Below are positions 34,728 to 48,623 of a stretch of 64,000 bases of DNA, piece by piece. The stretch is from a virus. Position numbers and translations under genes: made by a program. Location: positions 31,809 through 95,808 of IMG/VR virus record IMGVR_UViG_3300022928_002150; one strand, given 5' to 3'. Under the pieces are notes generated by a model. It had not been told where the DNA came from. It worked only from the letters and a program-made list of their open reading frames with translations, and did no database searches. Every line of letters starts with the position of its first letter. The first letter of the stretch is position 1.

Positions 34728-35556
34728 ATAATTTAATCCTTAGATCATTTACTTGAGAATATTTAAGGGCTCCAGGATCTACGTTTTTATTACCGTACTT
34801 AATAACTCTGGAAGTGAGACCAACTTTCTCACATAACCCCTCCACACGGGAGGCTTGGGCTTGACCCGCCTCATCATTATCAAAAAATATATCAATATTA
34901 CTTACTCCTTGCATACCTAGAATTGCTAGTCTGTCCTCTGTAACGTTTTTTACACCGAAACAGCAGATAGCGTTTTCTAGGCCTTTGTCATGTAGATTAA
35001 GCATATCAAATATACCTTCCACTAATATAACAGACCCTAAGTTAGGTTTAACTACGGGAAACAATGGCATTTTTACTCCGGCAGGACTATTTAAATATTT
35101 GGGAGTTCCCATTGTGGTATGTCGTCCTACAAATGCTACTATTTTTAGTGTTCTATCGCGGATAGGGAACACAATTCTGTTTTGATACTCTTTTAAAGAT
35201 TGCTGCTGAAACGCCTCAAACTTTCTATAGGTTTCTGGTTTTATATCTCTCCAGTTACCTACATACGGCATAGAATTTTTAGGAAAGGCTAATCCTATAT
35301 TCTCTGCTCGTACTTCTTGTATTTTCTTCTTTAACATCTCTCTTCGAACCTGCATTTGATTCTGTCGTTCGCCGTAAAGAGTAAACAAATTGCCCTTATA
35401 CTCACACGAAAAACAATTGAATATACCAGTTATCTGGTCTATTCTCATACTAGGGTTTTTGTCTGGGTGCGCAGGGTTTAAACAGCTTACTAGAAAGTCT
35501 CCACCTTTAGGTATGAAGGCAATTTCTTTACTTCTTAAAAGATCTTCTACGTTCAT
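34720..35556 (-). CDS. DNA primase
   Basis: C...H.D..PS...CFSC zinc finger; EGIFD and D.DEAG TOPRIM. Confidence 0.92.
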   Translation of the reverse strand: MNVEDLLRSKEIAFIPKGGDFLVSCLNPAHPDKNPSMRIDQITGIFNCFSCEYKGNLFTLYGERQNQMQVRREMLKKKIQEVRAENIGLAFPKNSMPYVGNWRDIKPETYRKFEAFQQQSLKEYQNRIVFPIRDRTLKIVAFVGRHTTMGTPKYLNSPAGVKMPLFPVVKPNLGSVILVEGIFDMLNLHDKGLENAICCFGVKNVTEDRLAILGMQGVSNIDIFFDNDEAGQAQASRVEGLCEKVGLTSRVIKYGNKNVDPGALKYSQVNDLRIKLYA

Positions 35557-35819
35557 TAACAGTCCGAATCATAGTCTTGCCACTCGTCATATTCAGTGGG
35601 CTCATAATAGTTATCATACTCTTCGGAGAGGCTGCCCGTTTCTATGATTAGCTCATATTCTTCAAACTTACTTATCTCCTCCTCTGTAAAAAAGGAGTAG
35701 TATTTAGAAAGCCTAGCCATGCCAGTTTGCATCCACTCAAAGTCACCAACATCTACAGCGGCCTCTAAAACAATAAAGTGCTCTTCAATTTTACTTCTAG
35801 CATCGTCCTGTTTAATCAT
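35556..35819 (-). CDS. Hypothetical acidic protein
   Basis: 87 aa, coupled; EPTEYDEWQDYDSDC end. Confidence 0.6.
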   Translation of the reverse strand: MIKQDDARSKIEEHFIVLEAAVDVGDFEWMQTGMARLSKYYSFFTEEEISKFEEYELIIETGSLSEEYDNYYEPTEYDEWQDYDSDC

Positions 35820-42610: not shown

Positions 42611-43280
42611 GTTGTTCGACCGCCTTGCATACACTGGGAAAGTGTACTTCTAAGATCTCCCAGCATTTATCTGCAACTTCCATGTGCTCCGGTTGTGTTC
42701 CGTGACCTCGTCTTAGGTCACAGTAATGAATCCAAGATCGAAGAGTACCAGACATATACAGTGTTGTCTCTGTCAACCCCTCTGGAAGAAGCGCTCTCGC
42801 CTGTTCTTTGGCTATACCGTTATGAAGGGCCATCTCATAATAATCTTTTGCAGTTTGAGCGACTTGAGCCTGCATCTCACTGAATACTTCTTGGGCCTTT
42901 CTTTGGCGATCAGCATCTTCGTCTACTTCACTAAGCTGCCTATTGGTAGGGTGTTGTTTTCGTGCTTCCCTATTTGTAACAAACGACTCGCTCACAGCAT
43001 ATCTCTGAGAAAACTCTTGGAAAGAGAAACTTCTGTGCCTTAAGATTTGTCTACTAATGTCTCTAGTAGTTTTGATTTCCATTGTAACACTAACCATCTC
43101 AAATGGGCTCCAGTGATCCTCTTTGATAAGATAGCCCAGTAGTTTGCTGGAAGTTTTAGTGTTATTCTGGTTTGCGGGATTGCTAACCCGAGCTGCAAAA
43201 GCAATAAGATCTTCTGCATTGTGACAACCTGTTTGAGCACTAGGAGTTGTCATCCCTACTAAACTTACTTCACTTCTCAT
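42600..43280 (-). CDS. thyX: Flavin-dependent thymidylate synthase
   Basis: HWSPFE, RHRSFSFQEFSQRY, EQAR.LLP. Confidence 0.95.
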   Translation of the reverse strand: MRSEVSLVGMTTPSAQTGCHNAEDLIAFAARVSNPANQNNTKTSSKLLGYLIKEDHWSPFEMVSVTMEIKTTRDISRQILRHRSFSFQEFSQRYAVSESFVTNREARKQHPTNRQLSEVDEDADRQRKAQEVFSEMQAQVAQTAKDYYEMALHNGIAKEQARALLPEGLTETTLYMSGTLRSWIHYCDLRRGHGTQPEHMEVADKCWEILEVHFPSVCKAVEQHDN

Positions 43281-43650
43281 TCTTATCCTTATAATCTTTA
43301 ATTGCTGCTTTAATAGCATCCTCTGCGAGAACACTACAATGAATTTTTACCGGAGGTAGTGCCAATTCTTCTGCTATATCTGAGTTGCTAATATCATTAG
43401 CAGAATCCAAGGTTCTTCCCTTAACCCACTCAGTGAGTAGAGAAGAGCTAGCAATTGCACTTCCACATCCGTATGTTTTAAACTTTGCATCTAAAATTAC
43501 TCCTTCATCAGATACTTTTATCTGCAAGCGCATAACATCCCCGCAAGCAGGAGCGCCTACCATGCCGGTACCAATATCTTCGGCATCATCAAATCTTCCT
43601 ACATTTCTAGGATTTTCATAGTGATCCATTACTTTATCTGAGTATGCCAT
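43270..43650 (-). CDS. iscU: Fe-S cluster scaffold IscU
   Basis: YSDKVMDHYENPRNVG, APACGDVM, GCGSAIASSS, LPPVKIHCSVLAEDA. Confidence 0.97.
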   Translation of the reverse strand: MAYSDKVMDHYENPRNVGRFDDAEDIGTGMVGAPACGDVMRLQIKVSDEGVILDAKFKTYGCGSAIASSSLLTEWVKGRTLDSANDISNSDIAEELALPPVKIHCSVLAEDAIKAAIKDYKDKNEK

Positions 43651-44237
43651 TATTTTTGTCCTGATATTCTATTATCATAGTCTGCGAGATTCTCATCCCA
43701 CCAGTGGGGTTTACCCCGTACTTTCCAGTGTGCACCCTTACCGATAGCGGCCTTATCCTTCATGTAGAACATGCGATAGGATTCTACGGCATCCTCTGAC
43801 TTGAGTTCTTCTGGCATGGCTTGGGCAAATGGGGTAAGTCCCGTTGCTGGTAAATGTACCATGTCTGGCAAGCAACGGATAACTTCTTCGAAGGATTTGT
43901 GATTGGCACCACCTCTGTAGATGTGCTCTTGATTGAGGGCGTGTGAATAGCAGAAGAGCCATTCATAGTTTTGTTGTGACTCACGAGCCCATATAGTACA
44001 GGGGTGATTATACATAGTAGGAAGATAGGGAAAATCCCTAATTGGGTTTTTCTTGGCTTCTTTGAGTACACTCCATTCCTCCGAAGTTAGTTTTCTAGGT
44101 ATATATCCTAGGTATTTATCTACCCAGTGATTTGTACAGAGCATCTGCGCAGCTTCTAACTGCATTTTACCTGAGTGTGCATCAATATGGTATTGAGCAC
44201 AAAGATCTATGTCGTGGTCTAAAATAAATATATTCAC
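43650..44237 (-). CDS. Pyrimidine-dimer DNA glycosylase-like protein
   Basis: MNIF.LD...A..H.D.H..KM..E.AQML, NHPCTIW. Confidence 0.75.
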   Translation of the reverse strand: MNIFILDHDIDLCAQYHIDAHSGKMQLEAAQMLCTNHWVDKYLGYIPRKLTSEEWSVLKEAKKNPIRDFPYLPTMYNHPCTIWARESQQNYEWLFCYSHALNQEHIYRGGANHKSFEEVIRCLPDMVHLPATGLTPFAQAMPEELKSEDAVESYRMFYMKDKAAIGKGAHWKVRGKPHWWDENLADYDNRISGQK

Positions 44238-44262
44238 TGGTAGTTCCCTAAGTTAAGAATAT

Positions 44263-44291
44263 ATTATACAGTATTCTACATATAAAGTCAA
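44263..44291 (-). promoter_or_regulatory. Sigma70-type phage promoter
   Basis: TTGACT-17-TATAAT. Confidence 0.85.
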
Positions 44292-44301
44292 GCACTATTT
44301 A

Positions 44302-44550
44302 CTAAGAGTACTTTGGGTTTGACATTTTTGCTAATCTTTTTTGCACCAGGTTTTCTGTCATGCTTCTATCTAACCCGTAGGCTTGTTGCAGAACCATTAT
44401 CATAGCCTTTACATCGGCCATTTCTTCTTGCAGATTTTGTAGATATTTAGGATCATCTACTCCGTGTCTCATTACTTTTGAGCAGGCGCGGATTAATTCT
44501 CCGCACTCTTCCATTGTAATTACTAAGGTTTTTAGTTTCTCTAGATCCAT
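44302..44550 (-). CDS. MazG-like NTP pyrophosphatase
   Basis: EECGEL...SK...EEMADV. Confidence 0.75.
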   Translation of the reverse strand: MDLEKLKTLVITMEECGELIRACSKVMRHGVDDPKYLQNLQEEMADVKAMIMVLQQAYGLDRSMTENLVQKRLAKMSNPKYS

Positions 44551-44563
44551 GTCTTTTATTTTA

Positions 44564-45052
44564 TTACTCCTGGTTTTGCTGTGTGGGATCGTCTAATGTA
44601 TTAATATAAGAGTCAAGAAGCCGGGACACTGCCTCCGGCTTCTCGTCTGCTTTAAAGCGCACTTTTATTTTAGCGAGCCCTGAATTTTTGGATTTAGAAC
44701 TGTCCACAGATATAGATTTAATATTATGTTGATATCCCACCTCTTTGTCTGCAAATAAGCCTAGAACATCTTTTTTCACTTGAGAGACATCGTCGTCAAC
44801 ATCTCCAAAATGAAGGCGTGCCTCAAACTCTACATCTAACTGATCCAGCCCTATAGAGGAATGGTCTGCAAGAATGTAGAGAGGAAAAACTATGTCTTTA
44901 TCGTCAACTTTAAACTTTACAGTTTTAGGGGTACCATCATCATTAAAATAATTCTTCAGTGAATTAATATGCTGACGCTGACTAATACTTTGAGCAACCA
45001 TAGCACTTTCTAGAAGTCCTGATACTAGCTCATCTATATGTAATTTTGCCAT
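44564..45052 (-). CDS. DUF2589-family protein (short paralogue)
   Basis: L..A...AQ...H...L..YF; PLY.L.....GLD...VEF; PE.VSRLLD. Confidence 0.65.
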   Translation of the reverse strand: MAKLHIDELVSGLLESAMVAQSISQRQHINSLKNYFNDDGTPKTVKFKVDDKDIVFPLYILADHSSIGLDQLDVEFEARLHFGDVDDDVSQVKKDVLGLFADKEVGYQHNIKSISVDSSKSKNSGLAKIKVRFKADEKPEAVSRLLDSYINTLDDPTQQNQE

Positions 45053-45073
45053 TCTTTACCAAATTTTTAAATT

Positions 45074-45670
45074 TTAGGGGCCACTTGTATTAGTAGAAAG
45101 AGGAATAAGGGAGGGCTCTAGCATCTGTGTTAGGTAATCTGATAACTTAAGCATCCCCTCTGTAGCAGGAAGCTGTTCCGCGTGTACGGCCACTTCATAC
45201 TTAGCAGAGTTATCTGTCTTTCGTACATTTTCTCGATTAGTAGCTACTTTTCCAGAAATATTTGCTTTATACTTTGCTCCCCAAAATCCACCAGAGATAG
45301 AAGCACTTACTGAGCTTTCTGTAGAGGTGGAAGAAGTATCTTGCGTTGACGTTTGAACTTCCATAGAAAAATTAATATCTGCGGAGGTAATAGCCAAGGA
45401 GGGCAGAGGCACTAAAGGAAGCATAGGTACTTTACTGTATAAAGTTTGTACAGACTGCTCTCCAGTATCCCCGTCTGTCATGACTCTATTCATTTCAACA
45501 TCTAAAGATCGAGCTACAGTCTTTCCGTCGTCTCCTTTTGTGAACGCTACTTCCTGAATGTATTGCCAGGTAACATCATTGAGCTGTGCCTGACCTTTAG
45601 CCATTCCAATAATAGGGGCTGTAATCAGTTGCTCAATGGGTAAACCTGTAAATTTGTTAGCTATACTCAT
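45074..45670 (-). CDS. DUF2589-family protein
   Basis: F.GLP...LI.AP....A.GQ..L, VP.L.LV..PSL.I, F.MEV, R.TDNSAKY.V.V.A...P..EG. Confidence 0.75.
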   Translation of the reverse strand: MSIANKFTGLPIEQLITAPIIGMAKGQAQLNDVTWQYIQEVAFTKGDDGKTVARSLDVEMNRVMTDGDTGEQSVQTLYSKVPMLPLVPLPSLAITSADINFSMEVQTSTQDTSSTSTESSVSASISGGFWGAKYKANISGKVATNRENVRKTDNSAKYEVAVHAEQLPATEGMLKLSDYLTQMLEPSLIPLSTNTSGP

Positions 45671-45678
45671 TTTTTTCC

Positions 45679-45879
45679 TTAATTAAATGTTACCAAACCT
45701 TGATAACGCTTTTTGATTTTATCAATATCATTTAATGCTGCTTTCATTTTGCCCTTTACTTCGTCTTCAACATCAAAGTTAAAGACAGTTTTACACCCTG
45801 GACAAGCAGAGATAGGGTTCTTCATTATGAAGTCTAGAGATAGTCCCAAAGGGCTAGCACATACGGGGCAGGGCAGCAT
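45679..45879 (-). CDS. Zinc-ribbon protein
   Basis: CPVC...CPGC plus helix; AAGGAG RBS. Confidence 0.75.
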   Translation of the reverse strand: MLPCPVCASPLGLSLDFIMKNPISACPGCKTVFNFDVEDEVKGKMKAALNDIDKIKKRYQGLVTFN

Positions 45880-45894
45880 GGGGTCTCTCCTTGT

Positions 45895-46065
45895 CTAGAT
45901 TCTGTTAATTTTATAGAAAGATATGTGGTCTTCCCAGGTATTGAATTCTTTTCGAATATGGCAGTAAAATTTTCCTTCGTAACACCTACCTACGCTTTTT
46001 CTTTGTTGCTGTCTAGCATGTACGTTACGTTTGCTGCCGACACGTTGGGATTGTCTCTTATACAT
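45895..46065 (-). CDS. 56-aa basic hypothetical protein (not in ORF track)
   Basis: MYKRQSQR...CYEGKFYCHIRKEFNTWEDH; fills gap before zinc-ribbon gene but overlaps the BFD-like ORF. Confidence 0.35.
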   Translation of the reverse strand: MYKRQSQRVGSKRNVHARQQQRKSVGRCYEGKFYCHIRKEFNTWEDHISFYKINRI

Positions 46066-46154
46066 ATTCCGCACTTATCTCCTATTTTATGGGCTAAAAA
46101 AGAATTATTTTCTAGCATTTTTTCTGTTATTTTGTTACATATACATATATACAC
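45990..46154 (-). CDS. BFD-like [2Fe-2S] mini-ferredoxin (not in ORF track)
   Basis: GTG start 2 nt after endolysin stop; MYICICNKITE...G.KCGICIR matches the Bfd pattern MYVCLC...G.QCGKC. Confidence 0.65.
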   Translation of the reverse strand: MYICICNKITEKMLENNSFLAHKIGDKCGICIRDNPNVSAANVTYMLDSNKEKA

Positions 46155-46156
46155 CG

Positions 46157-46624
46157 CTAGGATACTGCAGTCATTCTATTTACTAATCTTTTTGACCTAT
46201 CGCCCACTTGATGATACCACCTACTATCTTTCATTTCTATTGCGGCCTTTTTCCAATCTGCGGTATTTAACGCATTAGTCATGTTCTTAAATTTAGATAA
46301 TCTAGGTCTTCCTAGGTTGAACATCATATTGGCTAAAATTTCTTTTACTTCTCCTGGGTAAGAATCCCAGTGACTATCATATAATATTTTACACTCGTCT
46401 AAAACTACTTGTAGATCTTTTTCAAAAACTTCCTCAATCCGCTCCTCTGATACTGCTGTTCCAACTTTGCACCCAAATTCTGGATCGTCTTCAATAATAA
46501 GATGGCCGATACCAAAAGTAGCATACCCAAGATGGTCAAGATATATTTCAGTTTTGATTCCTTCATCTACTTTTAGTTGCTCTATTAGTCTTTCTTTGTT
46601 TATATTAAGATCTTTTTCTTTCAT
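46157..46624 (-). CDS. Endolysin, GH24 (T4 lysozyme-like)
   Basis: DEG...IYLDHLGYATFGIGHL, M.FNLG, SRWY.QV..R. Confidence 0.92.
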   Translation of the reverse strand: MKEKDLNINKERLIEQLKVDEGIKTEIYLDHLGYATFGIGHLIIEDDPEFGCKVGTAVSEERIEEVFEKDLQVVLDECKILYDSHWDSYPGEVKEILANMMFNLGRPRLSKFKNMTNALNTADWKKAAIEMKDSRWYHQVGDRSKRLVNRMTAVS

Positions 46625-46998
46625 TTTTTTGCTTTCATAAAACCGATGGCGGATCTTACCCCAAAGGAAGCGGCCACAATTACACTTAGTGTATACTGAT
46701 ACCAATCTGGCATAATTTCTAATACTTTGAACCCCTCATGTACGTATGGCACCATGCTAGGTATAAATGCCATTATTAGTGGAATACTGAAAAGAAGCGT
46801 TAACCACTCGTCTTTCCACGAGCTTCCGCTGTTTTCAGCCATAATTTTTTCCCAGTCGCCTTCTTGTTCTACGGATTTAACTATTACTGCTGCCTTTGCA
46901 TCTGCTTTAGCTTTACTTACCGCATTTTTCCCTTCAATATAGGTTTGTCCTAACCCCGCTACTGATTTAAATAATTCTCCAATTATAGGTATACCCAT
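46621..46998 (-). CDS. Putative holin
   Basis: SWKDEW motif plus two TM helices, overlapping endolysin start. Confidence 0.65.
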   Translation of the reverse strand: MGIPIIGELFKSVAGLGQTYIEGKNAVSKAKADAKAAVIVKSVEQEGDWEKIMAENSGSSWKDEWLTLLFSIPLIMAFIPSMVPYVHEGFKVLEIMPDWYQYTLSVIVAASFGVRSAIGFMKAKK

Positions 46999-47040
46999 AT
47001 TTTTTCTCTAAAGTAGGGGGCTTACGCCCCCACCCTACCA

Positions 47041-47142
47041 TTAGACCATTAAAGGGCTGATGATATATGCTAAAGTGCCAGTAAGGCCTACCAAGACTGC
47101 AACAATTTCTGCTACATCTGCGATACCTTCTTTCTTGGCCAT
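47041..47142 (-). CDS. Small membrane peptide
   Basis: MAKKEGIADVAEIVAVLVGLTGTLAYIISPLMV; AAGGAG upstream; hairpin downstream at 47013-47038. Confidence 0.5.
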   Translation of the reverse strand: MAKKEGIADVAEIVAVLVGLTGTLAYIISPLMV

Positions 47143-47164
47143 AATATTTTTCACACGTTTCTCC

Positions 47165-47590
47165 TTAGTTAATTGCAATCTTCTTAGGCTGCAATTCTTC
47201 AGGGACTTCTTCATGCAAATCAATGCAAAGCAGGCCCCGCTCCATATAAGCGGAAACTACTTGAACGTGTTCAGGAACGCCAAAAACTCTTTTAAATGTT
47301 TTACCACTCAAGCCTTTGTAAACGTATGTTTCAGATTCTTCTTTTGTCTCTAACTTTTTTCTTCCCTCTACAGTTAGAACACCCTCGTGGAGGAAAATAT
47401 CGATATCCGCTTTATTCCACCCGGGCACAGCAATCTCAACCCTTTTATCTCCATTCTTGTTGGCGATAATATTAAATCTAGGGTAAGTACCATCAAAGTT
47501 CTCTTGGAACAGTGCCGTGTTGTTCATGAAACGGTCAAAACCAAACATTACTTTTGTTAGGTCTGCCATAGCTAATTTTGAATTTGTCAT
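47165..47590 (-). CDS. Small heat-shock protein Hsp20
   Basis: YPRFNI...EIAVPG...L.V.G...Y.YKG...F.R.F...A....GLL.I.L. Confidence 0.92.
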   Translation of the reverse strand: MTNSKLAMADLTKVMFGFDRFMNNTALFQENFDGTYPRFNIIANKNGDKRVEIAVPGWNKADIDIFLHEGVLTVEGRKKLETKEESETYVYKGLSGKTFKRVFGVPEHVQVVSAYMERGLLCIDLHEEVPEELQPKKIAIN

Positions 47591-47681
47591 AAATGTCTCC
47601 TCATCTTATGATTTCATGCCATCTTTCGATTAGCGGGGAGGCTTTCGCTCTCCGGTTTATAGTATGATAGTTATAGACGTA

Positions 47682-47837
47682 TCAGTCTTCAAAATCTTCG
47701 TCAACCTCAATTACTCCGTTATCAATAAAGTATTGAACGGCATCTTCTACACCCTCTTTATGCCCTAGGTACCAAGTAGATATACCACACCCTAGTAAGC
47801 AAAAGATAAAAATAAGTGTATCAACGCCAATAATCAT
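47682..47837 (-). CDS. Small membrane protein
   Basis: N-terminal TM, GGAG RBS downstream of promoter. Confidence 0.55.
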   Translation of the reverse strand: MIIGVDTLIFIFCLLGCGISTWYLGHKEGVEDAVQYFIDNGVIEVDEDFED

Positions 47838-47874
47838 ATGCAATCTCCGAGGCTTGGTTTTGTGAATTTCTATT

Positions 47875-47962
47875 ATTATACATAAATATGACTTAAAAGT
47901 CAAGAAAAATTTTTTGCTAACTAAAAATTCTTCTTGACTTTTTAGGTTAAATGTTCTATACT
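47875..47962. promoter_or_regulatory. Back-to-back divergent promoters
   Basis: - strand TTGACT-17-TATAAT (47903-47875); + strand TTGACT-17-TATACT (47934-47962). Confidence 0.85.
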
Positions 47963-47988: not shown

Positions 47989-48171
47989 ATGAAAATATAT
48001 AAGAAAAGACCGTGGACACACGAAGAAAGAAAGCTTCTTAGTAAGATATATCACAAAAGTAATAGAACCGAATTAGAAAACTACTTCCCGGACAGGAGCT
48101 ATAACGCTTGTGTAAAGCAGGCCAAGTATTTGAAGGATAGAGGATGGTATTTTGTAAAGGAAGTAAAATAG
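47989..48171 (+). CDS. Small Myb/HTH-like protein
   Basis: WT.EE...L...Y...FP.RS..A. Confidence 0.55.
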   Translation: MKIYKKRPWTHEERKLLSKIYHKSNRTELENYFPDRSYNACVKQAKYLKDRGWYFVKEVK

Positions 48172-48623
48172 TAGCTTTCAGTATTTTAATGTATACTACC
48201 TCAGCTTTTGCCTCACATACAGAAGAAAAAGAAATAATCTGCCTAGCAAATAATATATATTTCGAGAGCAGAAACCAACCTATAAAGGGCAAACGTGCGG
48301 TAGGGGAAGTTGTTATAAACAGAGTTGCATCTAAGAAATTCCCTAATACAATCTGTACTGTAGTTACTCAACGAAAAACAAATATATGTCAATTTACTTG
48401 GTATTGCAAAGAAAATGTATATAAAATTATTACTGACTTTTCTTCATATGAAGAAGCATTAGAAATAGCATATGTGCTGTATCACGGTAGTACTAAGAAC
48501 ATAACGCAGGGAGCTCTTTGGTACCATGCTGACTATATAAAGCCACCTGGATGGACTAAAAGTATGCGCGTTACTGCACATATTGGAAATCATATCTTTT
48601 ATGTGGAGAAATTTAAGGAATAA
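48144..48623 (+). CDS. SleB-like cell wall hydrolase (Hydrolase_2)
   Basis: CLA.NIYFESR, V.NRV....FPNTIC.VV, QFTW, YHA, IG.H.FY; N-terminal signal. Confidence 0.92.
   Translation: MVFCKGSKIVAFSILMYTTSAFASHTEEKEIICLANNIYFESRNQPIKGKRAVGEVVINRVASKKFPNTICTVVTQRKTNICQFTWYCKENVYKIITDFSSYEEALEIAYVLYHGSTKNITQGALWYHADYIKPPGWTKSMRVTAHIGNHIFYVEKFKE

Follow-up and report, generated by a model that had tools for sequence, protein, structure and literature searches.

A three-gene cassette, consisting of a small putative zinc-ribbon protein and two DUF2589 proteins (here called Zn, A and B), is a self-contained, obligate accessory unit that is horizontally mobile among tailed phages. We studied the copy in a window of 64,000 nt (the whole stretch of DNA analysed here), which corresponds to bases 31809–95808 of IMG/VR record IMGVR_UViG_3300022928_002150, a record of 95.8 kb estimated to be ~98% complete. 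Judged by Pfam and PHROG profile matches, the record is a long-tailed phage: it encodes a tape-measure protein, a J-type central fibre, a family-A DNA polymerase, ribonucleotide reductase, SbcC, a DnaB-like helicase, ThyX, IscU, MazG and Hsp20. The public runs that contain the phage sequence are salt-marsh metagenomes; among the cultured phages of INPHARED there was no DNA match for positions 44000–47000 and no tblastn match for A. The reading that we favour, tentatively and with less than even confidence, is that A is a soluble protein that would form a β-hairpin pore, or otherwise disrupt a membrane, to aid breach of the cell envelope.

The three genes lie on the minus strand, in the order Zn (45679–45879; 66 aa), A (45074–45670; 198 aa) and B (44564–45052; 162 aa), as described in an initial annotation made from the sequence alone. 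Zn and A are separated by 8 nt and A and B by 21 nt, the trio has a combined length of ~1.3 kb, and a Shine-Dalgarno-like AAGGAG precedes the Zn gene. Both A and B score far above the cut-off of PF11655, the Pfam model of DUF2589 (cut-off 23 bits): A matches model positions 1–153 of 154 with 102.1 bits (E 4.9e-29), and B matches positions 2–153 with 54.9 bits (E 1.7e-14). They are the only two DUF2589 copies detected by a search of the phage's own genome. In NCBIfam, A had no match and B only one at chance level. With 1084 clusters at 50% identity, DUF2589 is a large family; it has neither a solved or matched fold nor an assigned function, and our literature search on the family returned only passing mentions in expression tables and lists, in agreement with the initial annotation.

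The Zn protein carries a CxxC-N18-CxxC motif followed by a Lys-rich C-terminal segment, and Cys4, Cys7, Cys26 and Cys29 are invariant in the 25 orthologues compared. Its match to the Pfam family Zn_ribbon_4 is weak (15.6 bits against a cut-off of 30.3), as are its sub-cut-off matches to the ECs_2282 and YnfU families, phrog_4875 and phrog_2622. Kyte-Doolittle profiles and a check of the N-termini revealed no transmembrane (TM) helix or signal peptide in Zn, A or B; the maximum 19-residue means are 1.42, 1.36 and 0.99, respectively, with 1.6 taken as the threshold for a TM segment and 1.98 reached by a holin-like neighbour described below. None of the three proteins has a lipobox.

A search of IMG/VR with A yielded 138 relatives, and we counted loci among the best 80 (69–86% identity to A), calling open reading frames (ORFs) in the fetched loci with a simple longest-ORF heuristic. 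B was present in 79 of the 80 and Zn in 77. The trio was always adjacent and co-oriented, and occurred in three gene orders: Zn-A-B, A-B-Zn and B-Zn-A. When flanking ORFs were clustered, the next commonest neighbour family was found in only 19 of 81 loci, and the window's own neighbours were shared by only four close relatives. A reciprocal search from an alignment of the Zn protein recovered 79 further viral loci, 75 of which have both A and B; the other four end right after A, at the end of the contig. Trio-bearing contigs range from a few kb up to 483 kb, indicating that the cassette is common to very different phages. The phage clade is tight, with at least 69% identity to the window's A inside it and at most 46% for the best relatives outside. 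We conclude that Zn, A and B travel together as one unit in tailed phages, and this survey of gene neighbourhoods makes Zn, which the initial annotation had set beside the two paralogues, an obligate third member.

Two groups of loci have distinctive surroundings. In loci L018–L026, the trio directly adjoins the gene of a GIY-YIG/NUMOD3 homing-type endonuclease (e.g. L019:2328–2978, minus strand), a possible vehicle for its mobility. In the L071 group (seven loci; L071:5972–7612, plus strand), the trio lies in the late structural module, between a major head protein and a tail-fibre-assembly-like gene.

An alternating hairpin pattern in A

A and B were described in the initial annotation as paralogues. 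The relationship is old: BLASTP of A against B gave an E-value of only 0.57, and profile-profile alignment with hhalign gave a probability of 96.3% (E 1.7e-9) over 151 columns. From this comparison we conclude that A and B are ancient paralogues. B aligns to A over its full length, with a charged segment in place of the Ser/Thr-rich alternating segment that had been noted in the larger protein only, and which we place at residues 119–142 of A.

To describe this segment, we calculated column-mean hydrophobicity over 67 diverse A-family sequences. Residues 96–106 of A alternate between hydrophobic and polar, and are followed by a polar Ser/Thr/Lys/Asp stretch (residues 107–116). Alternation is then unbroken at every position of residues 117–126 and 132–144, on either side of a tip with the consensus G-G-[WFY]-[GW]-[GP]. 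After the returning arm comes a conserved polar KENTRSTDxS stretch, and alternation resumes at residues 156–166. The whole hairpin spans ~70 residues, and the distal 10–13 residues of each arm present one Ala/Val/Ile face and one Ser/Lys face. In the window, the amphipathic, Ser/Thr/Ala-rich part (residues 117–144, tip GGFWG) is encoded at 45239–45322 on the minus strand. The column means thus show the strict alternation, over a bilayer-spanning length, that characterises an amphipathic β-hairpin. Alternation of this type is the pattern of the insertion hairpins of β-pore-forming toxins.

An AlphaFold2 (AF2) model of A built from 67 diverse sequences had a mean predicted local distance difference test score (pLDDT) of 73. 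It comprises a helix (residues 12–42), a four-stranded antiparallel sheet (55–65, 72–82, 92–108 and 151–166) and a second helix (171–183), so that the first alternating stretch falls inside the strand 92–108. The model of B was poor (pLDDT 62, predicted template modelling score 0.37); it has the same order of elements as A, with a helix at the position of A's first hairpin arm. Prediction of an A+B complex gave a score of 0.07 and a mark of 0.32, which speak neither for nor against binding.

We propose the following model. A would be made as a soluble cytoplasmic protein and would oligomerise, and its hairpin, headed by the aromatic-glycine tip, would insert into a membrane as a β-barrel or a similarly disruptive assembly. 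The target would most likely be the cytoplasmic membrane, approached from inside. B may be an obligate hairpin-less partner that either co-assembles with A or restrains it, and Zn may be a phage-specific third component, acting as a trigger or an assembly factor. At the end of infection, the cassette would aid the breach of the envelope, assisting either lysis itself or hydrolases that lack an export signal ('leaderless'), in a manner distinct from that of a classical holin or spanin.

Several observations weigh against this model. The alternation of the A hairpin would fit equally well any sheet with one buried face, including that of a soluble β-sheet polymer. In the AF2 monomer, residues 111–148 have a pLDDT of 36 and the hairpin is unmodelled; this part of A is the continuation of the sheet's two longest strands. 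A sequence search of the PDB with A gave no match at E ≤ 10, and Foldseek with the A model gave no solved relative in the PDB (best E 0.83). A wide structural search with VIA, which is independent of Foldseek, reached a best Z of 4.1, with no pore former in its top 50; neither method therefore matched A to a known pore-former fold. The BFVD library of viral structures contained only a 40%-identical homologue of A, and the ESM Atlas only DUF2589 clusters. The initial annotation had proposed a hetero-oligomeric β-pore or polymer. The sequence pattern behind that idea held up, and proved to be conserved across the family; structural support did not materialise.

Some of these observations would suit a different explanation, namely a soluble structural polymer (a tube, sheet or filament), in the cytoplasm or in the virion, which A and B would build jointly by way of the Ala/Ser/Gly-rich hairpin, with no role at a membrane. 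The hydrophobic face of the hairpin is made up chiefly of small residues (Ala, Val and Gly), as is seen where sheets stack tightly; the conservation of A, the best conserved of the three proteins, is very strong; and the position of the trio in the L071 group, among head and tail-fibre-assembly genes, would be natural for a structural protein. Weak rows of the VIA search include baseplate and tube proteins, but their Z of ~3 is at noise level. However, many bacterial chromosomes carry the cassette in the absence of phage structural genes (see below), the Foldseek and VIA searches found no structural homologue, and such a role would leave the association with wall hydrolases unexplained. We consider a structural polymer very unlikely.

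Bacterial counterparts and wall-hydrolase neighbours

A by itself found no relative in reference genomes; a narrower alignment of A-type proteins yielded 133 relatives there, of which 80 loci were kept. They come from Pseudomonas, Helicobacter, Sulfuricurvum, Flavobacterium, sphingomonads, Myxococcota, Ferrovibrio, Fusobacteriaceae, many Lachnospiraceae and others. In 79 of the 80 there is exactly one strong A-type gene (220–240 bits), with an RSTDxSAKY motif preceded by a Ser/Thr/Gly/Ala-rich segment, and 79 of the 80 have one weak B-type gene (20–45 bits) without the motif. The 'bacterial-type two-component module' of the initial annotation, a hairpin protein with a hairpin-less paralogue, is thus borne out. 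A conserved third protein of ~90 aa accompanies the pair in 72 of the 80 loci (within L083–L162, e.g. L099:1486–1764, plus strand); it has no Pfam match, NCBIfam match or Cys motif. This protein was not found in the phage loci, nor the zinc ribbon in the 80 bacterial loci. The exchange of partners indicates that the core is A plus B, and that the small third subunit is lineage-specific. These sequence comparisons make A and B unexceptional members of an uncharacterised Pfam family, and the Zn-ribbon trio a distinct phage variant of a bacterial cassette.

An enlarged cassette occurs in the Lachnospiraceae-type loci L127–L162 (e.g. L147:4593–5714 and L127:8430–8729, both plus strand). It runs from an Amidase_2+Phage_lysozyme fusion through an A-type protein of ~290 aa, an extra gene and a second DUF2589 protein of ~380 aa to the ~90-aa partner. 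Downstream of it are a STAS anti-sigma-factor antagonist and large proteins without annotation, an arrangement that suggests regulated deployment. Elsewhere, bacterial neighbours include an astacin-like protease, AraC-type and STAS regulators, a TolC-like protein and an integrase-like gene.

Genes for wall hydrolases recur beside the cassette. In the phage loci we looked for homologues of four query families within three genes of the trio, an approach that gives a lower bound, and found them in 12 of 81. A T4-type lysozyme is present in the window and four relatives, a lysozyme-family protein of 271–281 aa in three loci (L009, L014 and L023), and a protein of 152–171 aa that matches the amidase+lysozyme query, with a lysozyme-like N-terminus, in two (L028 and L029); a GH19 gene directly adjoins the trio in the remaining two (L030 and L051). 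A further neighbour in L028 shares 45% identity with the gene that directly precedes the pair in eight Flavobacteriaceae loci, and both match the endolysin family phrog_33083 (E 4e-11 and 3e-16, respectively). In 17 Lachnospiraceae-type loci, the Amidase_2+Phage_lysozyme fusion lies directly upstream of the cassette. None of these cassette-adjacent hydrolases begins with a hydrophobic leader. Wall hydrolases of five different leaderless families recur beside the cassette in phages, Lachnospiraceae and Flavobacteriaceae, and recurrence with unrelated families argues for a functional association. Small TM proteins also adjoin the Zn gene in several phage contexts.

The family of ~200 aa shared by L028 and the Flavobacteriaceae (L028:9670–10260 and L092:6338–6940, both plus strand) belongs to phrog_3000, also matches the C-terminal part of phrog_33083, and has no Pfam match. 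It is found beside DUF2589 genes in a phage contig and in Leptobacterium and Flavobacterium chromosomes, and is probably an unclassified wall-acting enzyme.

A stricter count is less favourable to a role in envelope breach. We sorted the phage contexts into 12 single-linkage groups, which are not strictly independent of one another; a wall hydrolase lies within three genes of the trio in only two of the 12, and in eight no hydrolase or small TM protein is close by. Other neighbours of the trio include DNA ligase, DUF192, Endonuclease_NS, GIY-YIG, NUDIX and AdoMet decarboxylase genes, and the major head protein of the L071 group. We conclude that the association of cassette and hydrolases is recurrent but not obligatory. 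The link to lysis made in the initial annotation accordingly stands in so far as it recurs with several hydrolase families, but it applies to a minority of phage contexts.

These contexts raise the possibility that the cassette is instead a non-lysis accessory element (a 'moron'), membrane-acting or not, that spreads horizontally and is inserted at permissive sites, some of them in lysis regions by coincidence, serving superinfection exclusion, host takeover or counter-defence, or forming a selfish pair of toxin and inhibitor. High mobility, three gene orders and unrelated flanks would all be expected of such an element, as would the adjoining homing-type endonuclease in L018–L026 and early-type neighbours such as DNA ligase, NUDIX, Endonuclease_NS and MazG. 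The 69–86% identity of A across phages of widely differing contig size (20–483 kb) suggests recent spread, and some bacterial versions stand beside AraC-type or STAS regulators, the astacin-like protease or the integrase-like gene rather than lysins. On the other hand, none of Zn, A and B matched the defence models of PADLOC-DB 2.0 at E ≤ 0.1, and pairing with five families of leaderless wall hydrolases would be hard to obtain by chance insertion. We regard this explanation as unlikely, although it is a serious competitor to a membrane-disrupting A.

The lysis region of the phage and RNA-library contigs

In the window, the trio follows a run of co-oriented genes that encode, in order, a 73-aa ORF, Hsp20, a 33-aa single-TM peptide, a 125-aa holin-like protein, a lysozyme and a 54-aa ORF resembling BFD, a [2Fe-2S] mini-ferredoxin. 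A 110-nt gap separates the BFD-like ORF from the Zn gene, and MazG begins 13 nt past B. The lysozyme (46157–46705, minus strand) is T4-type and leaderless: it matches PF00959 (E 6e-11) and the endolysin family phrog_7, its N-terminus is not hydrophobic, and its true start is probably an internal Met that gives a protein of ~156 aa. The holin-like protein (46621–46998, minus strand) matches phrog_2524, a family of unknown function (E 2.5e-34), has no Pfam match, and contains two hydrophobic stretches in its C-terminal half. The initial annotation had put the trio directly downstream of the lysis genes. The genes are indeed co-oriented and close, but the BFD-like ORF and the 110-nt gap intervene, and the 'holin' belongs to a PHROG without assigned function. 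If the holin-like gene is counted as such, the trio is not needed as the sole membrane lesion, a further point against our model.

On the minus strand, the holin-like gene is closely preceded by a GGGGGC-GTAA-GCCCCC hairpin with T's after it (~47000–47035). Just past the lysis run, on the opposite strand, is a second wall hydrolase, a SleB-like protein of 159 aa (48144–48623, plus strand; endolysin family phrog_938, E 1e-23) with a signal-peptide-like N-terminus; the phage therefore has one leaderless and one exported hydrolase. The BFD-like ORF (45990–46154, minus strand) matches Fer2_BFD below the cut-off (E 0.0018) and retains 58% identity in four related contigs. It lies 2.3 kb from an IscU/NifU-like gene (43270–43650, minus strand), and the pair resembles a small Fe-S toolkit of the phage. 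A 59-aa ORF (45895–46074) that overlaps the BFD-like one is less conserved and probably spurious.

We scanned the entire 95.8-kb record for spanins with a simple heuristic for lipoboxes and TM segments, and found no credible i-/o-spanin pair or u-spanin, which accords with the initial annotation's failure to recognise a spanin pair in the window. Two candidates were inspected and rejected: an 85-aa ORF (35390–35647, plus strand), the sole lipobox ORF whose signal was plausible, is antisense to the primase gene and an 87-aa gene, and a 51-aa protein with an LLGC motif (within 47682–47903) is acidic and lacks a positively charged n-region.

With no spanin in sight, the trio might act as a spanin substitute: after the holin and endolysin have acted, hairpins of A would form a β-barrel in the outer membrane and so complete lysis in phages without Rz/Rz1-type spanins. 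The β-barrel is the native fold of outer-membrane proteins, and the window and loci L028, L030 and L051 each combine the trio with small TM holin-like proteins and an endolysin, leaving the outer-membrane step unassigned. However, the lipobox scan is heuristic and recognisable spanins are absent from many phages, most phage contexts of the trio are not lysis cassettes, and the small TM neighbours in several phages may be holins, so that the context does not fix a lysis step, if any, for the trio. In addition, the A+B core stands beside the amidase+lysozyme fusion in Lachnospiraceae, which are monoderm, and DUF2589-related genes are recorded in Archaeoglobus (PMC3949148); neither has an outer membrane. 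The presence of the core in monoderm bacteria implies that, if a membrane is its conserved target at all, it is the cytoplasmic one, which makes a dedicated spanin-like role less likely. The suggestion of a spanin substitute, also raised in the initial annotation, is thus weakened, and we consider it highly improbable.

The stretch is present in six salt-marsh RNA-library runs, four of which we mapped. In two runs from different studies (X18 and X19), a contig of ~1.2 kb spans just Zn-A-B (44662–45890 and 44627–45843, respectively); the MazG side is uncovered (e.g. 44363–44569), and the lysozyme/BFD stretch is represented only by pieces of 150–210 nt, although uncovered stretches in such contigs are not evidence of silence. 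In two others (X9 and X10), a single contig runs from Hsp20 through B (43933–47543 and 44536–47598, respectively). Cover as uneven as this speaks against mere carry-over of DNA. It is a weak sign of transcription of the trio in nature, perhaps in common with the lysis genes as well as from the gap that precedes Zn; contigs of this kind cannot prove transcription, strand, transcript ends or level. Representation in X9 is very uneven elsewhere too: a ThyX/IscU contig (42500–43341) has a depth of 425 and the next contig (43399–43931) a depth of 15. A scan for promoters and terminators, the counts of which were close to shuffled expectation and are used descriptively only, placed consensus promoter-like sites upstream of the 73-aa ORF (47903–47875) and downstream of MazG (44291–44263), and detected no terminator-like site on the minus strand from the lysis genes to B. 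Inside the 3′ end of B is a 10-bp GC-rich inverted repeat (44616–44643), near the RNA contig stops at 44627 and 44662.

Relation to known systems

Phage holin-endolysin(-spanin) cassettes resemble the trio in layout, since in the window and several other contexts it adjoins a leaderless endolysin and small TM proteins in the same orientation, a setting that would suit a role in breaching membranes. The likeness does not extend to the proteins. Lacking a TM helix, lipobox or signal peptide, Zn, A and B fall outside the definitions of holin and spanin, and most phage copies lie outside lysis regions.

The hairpin of A may resemble the 'rivet' loop of aerolysin. More broadly, toxins of the aerolysin and α-haemolysin type, bacterial gasdermins and Pepco share with A the arrangement of one amphipathic, Ser/Thr-rich hairpin per subunit, with polar flanks and a hydrophobic or aromatic tip. 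Pepco is a cytoplasmic protein of 117 aa that forms 9–10-mer β-barrels and kills from inside after cleavage (Evans et al. 2025, bioRxiv 10.1101/2025.11.14.688446). The searches of Pfam, where A hit only DUF2589, and of the PDB by sequence and structure gave no match between A and any of these proteins. A differs further in its modelled helix-sheet-helix core, which has no PDB neighbour, and in its obligatory hairpin-less paralogue; unlike Pepco and the gasdermins, the trio has no associated protease. We set aside membership of the Pepco/Trypco group, for which there is neither a sequence link nor a protease neighbour, and use Pepco, the nearest functional analogue in the literature, as an analogy only.

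Should A prove to be a pore former that acts from inside, it would provide a β-barrel route, beside that of helical holins, to phage lysis and hydrolase release, and may bear on lysis by phages without recognisable spanins or holins. A broader proposal is that A-type DUF2589 proteins are the founding members of a new class of soluble β-barrel pore formers produced in the cytoplasm, each with a hairpin-less paralogue as obligatory partner and an exchangeable third subunit, by which phages, bacteria and some archaea would breach membranes without a holin or Sec, for lysis or for release of leaderless hydrolases or other cargo. We consider this conceivable but rather unlikely.

The prophage zinc-binding proteins YnfU (NF038384) and ECs_2282 (NF047912) are similar to Zn in size and in their CxxC...CxxC motif. 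The matches are weak (E 0.004–0.006), and their 16–17 bits are far below the cut-offs of 36–37; these families, too, are without an assigned function.

The closest counterparts of the phage trio are the bacterial DUF2589 (PF11655) pairs, in which an A-type gene is likewise joined by a divergent B-type gene and a small third one, frequently next to hydrolases without a leader. The phage trio differs in being a tight sub-family whose third gene encodes a putative zinc ribbon of 66 aa, whereas the bacterial partner is a protein of ~90 aa. Taken together, the comparative data define a minimal unit of an A-type protein, a B-type protein and a small partner, repeatedly tied to wall hydrolases that lack an export signal.

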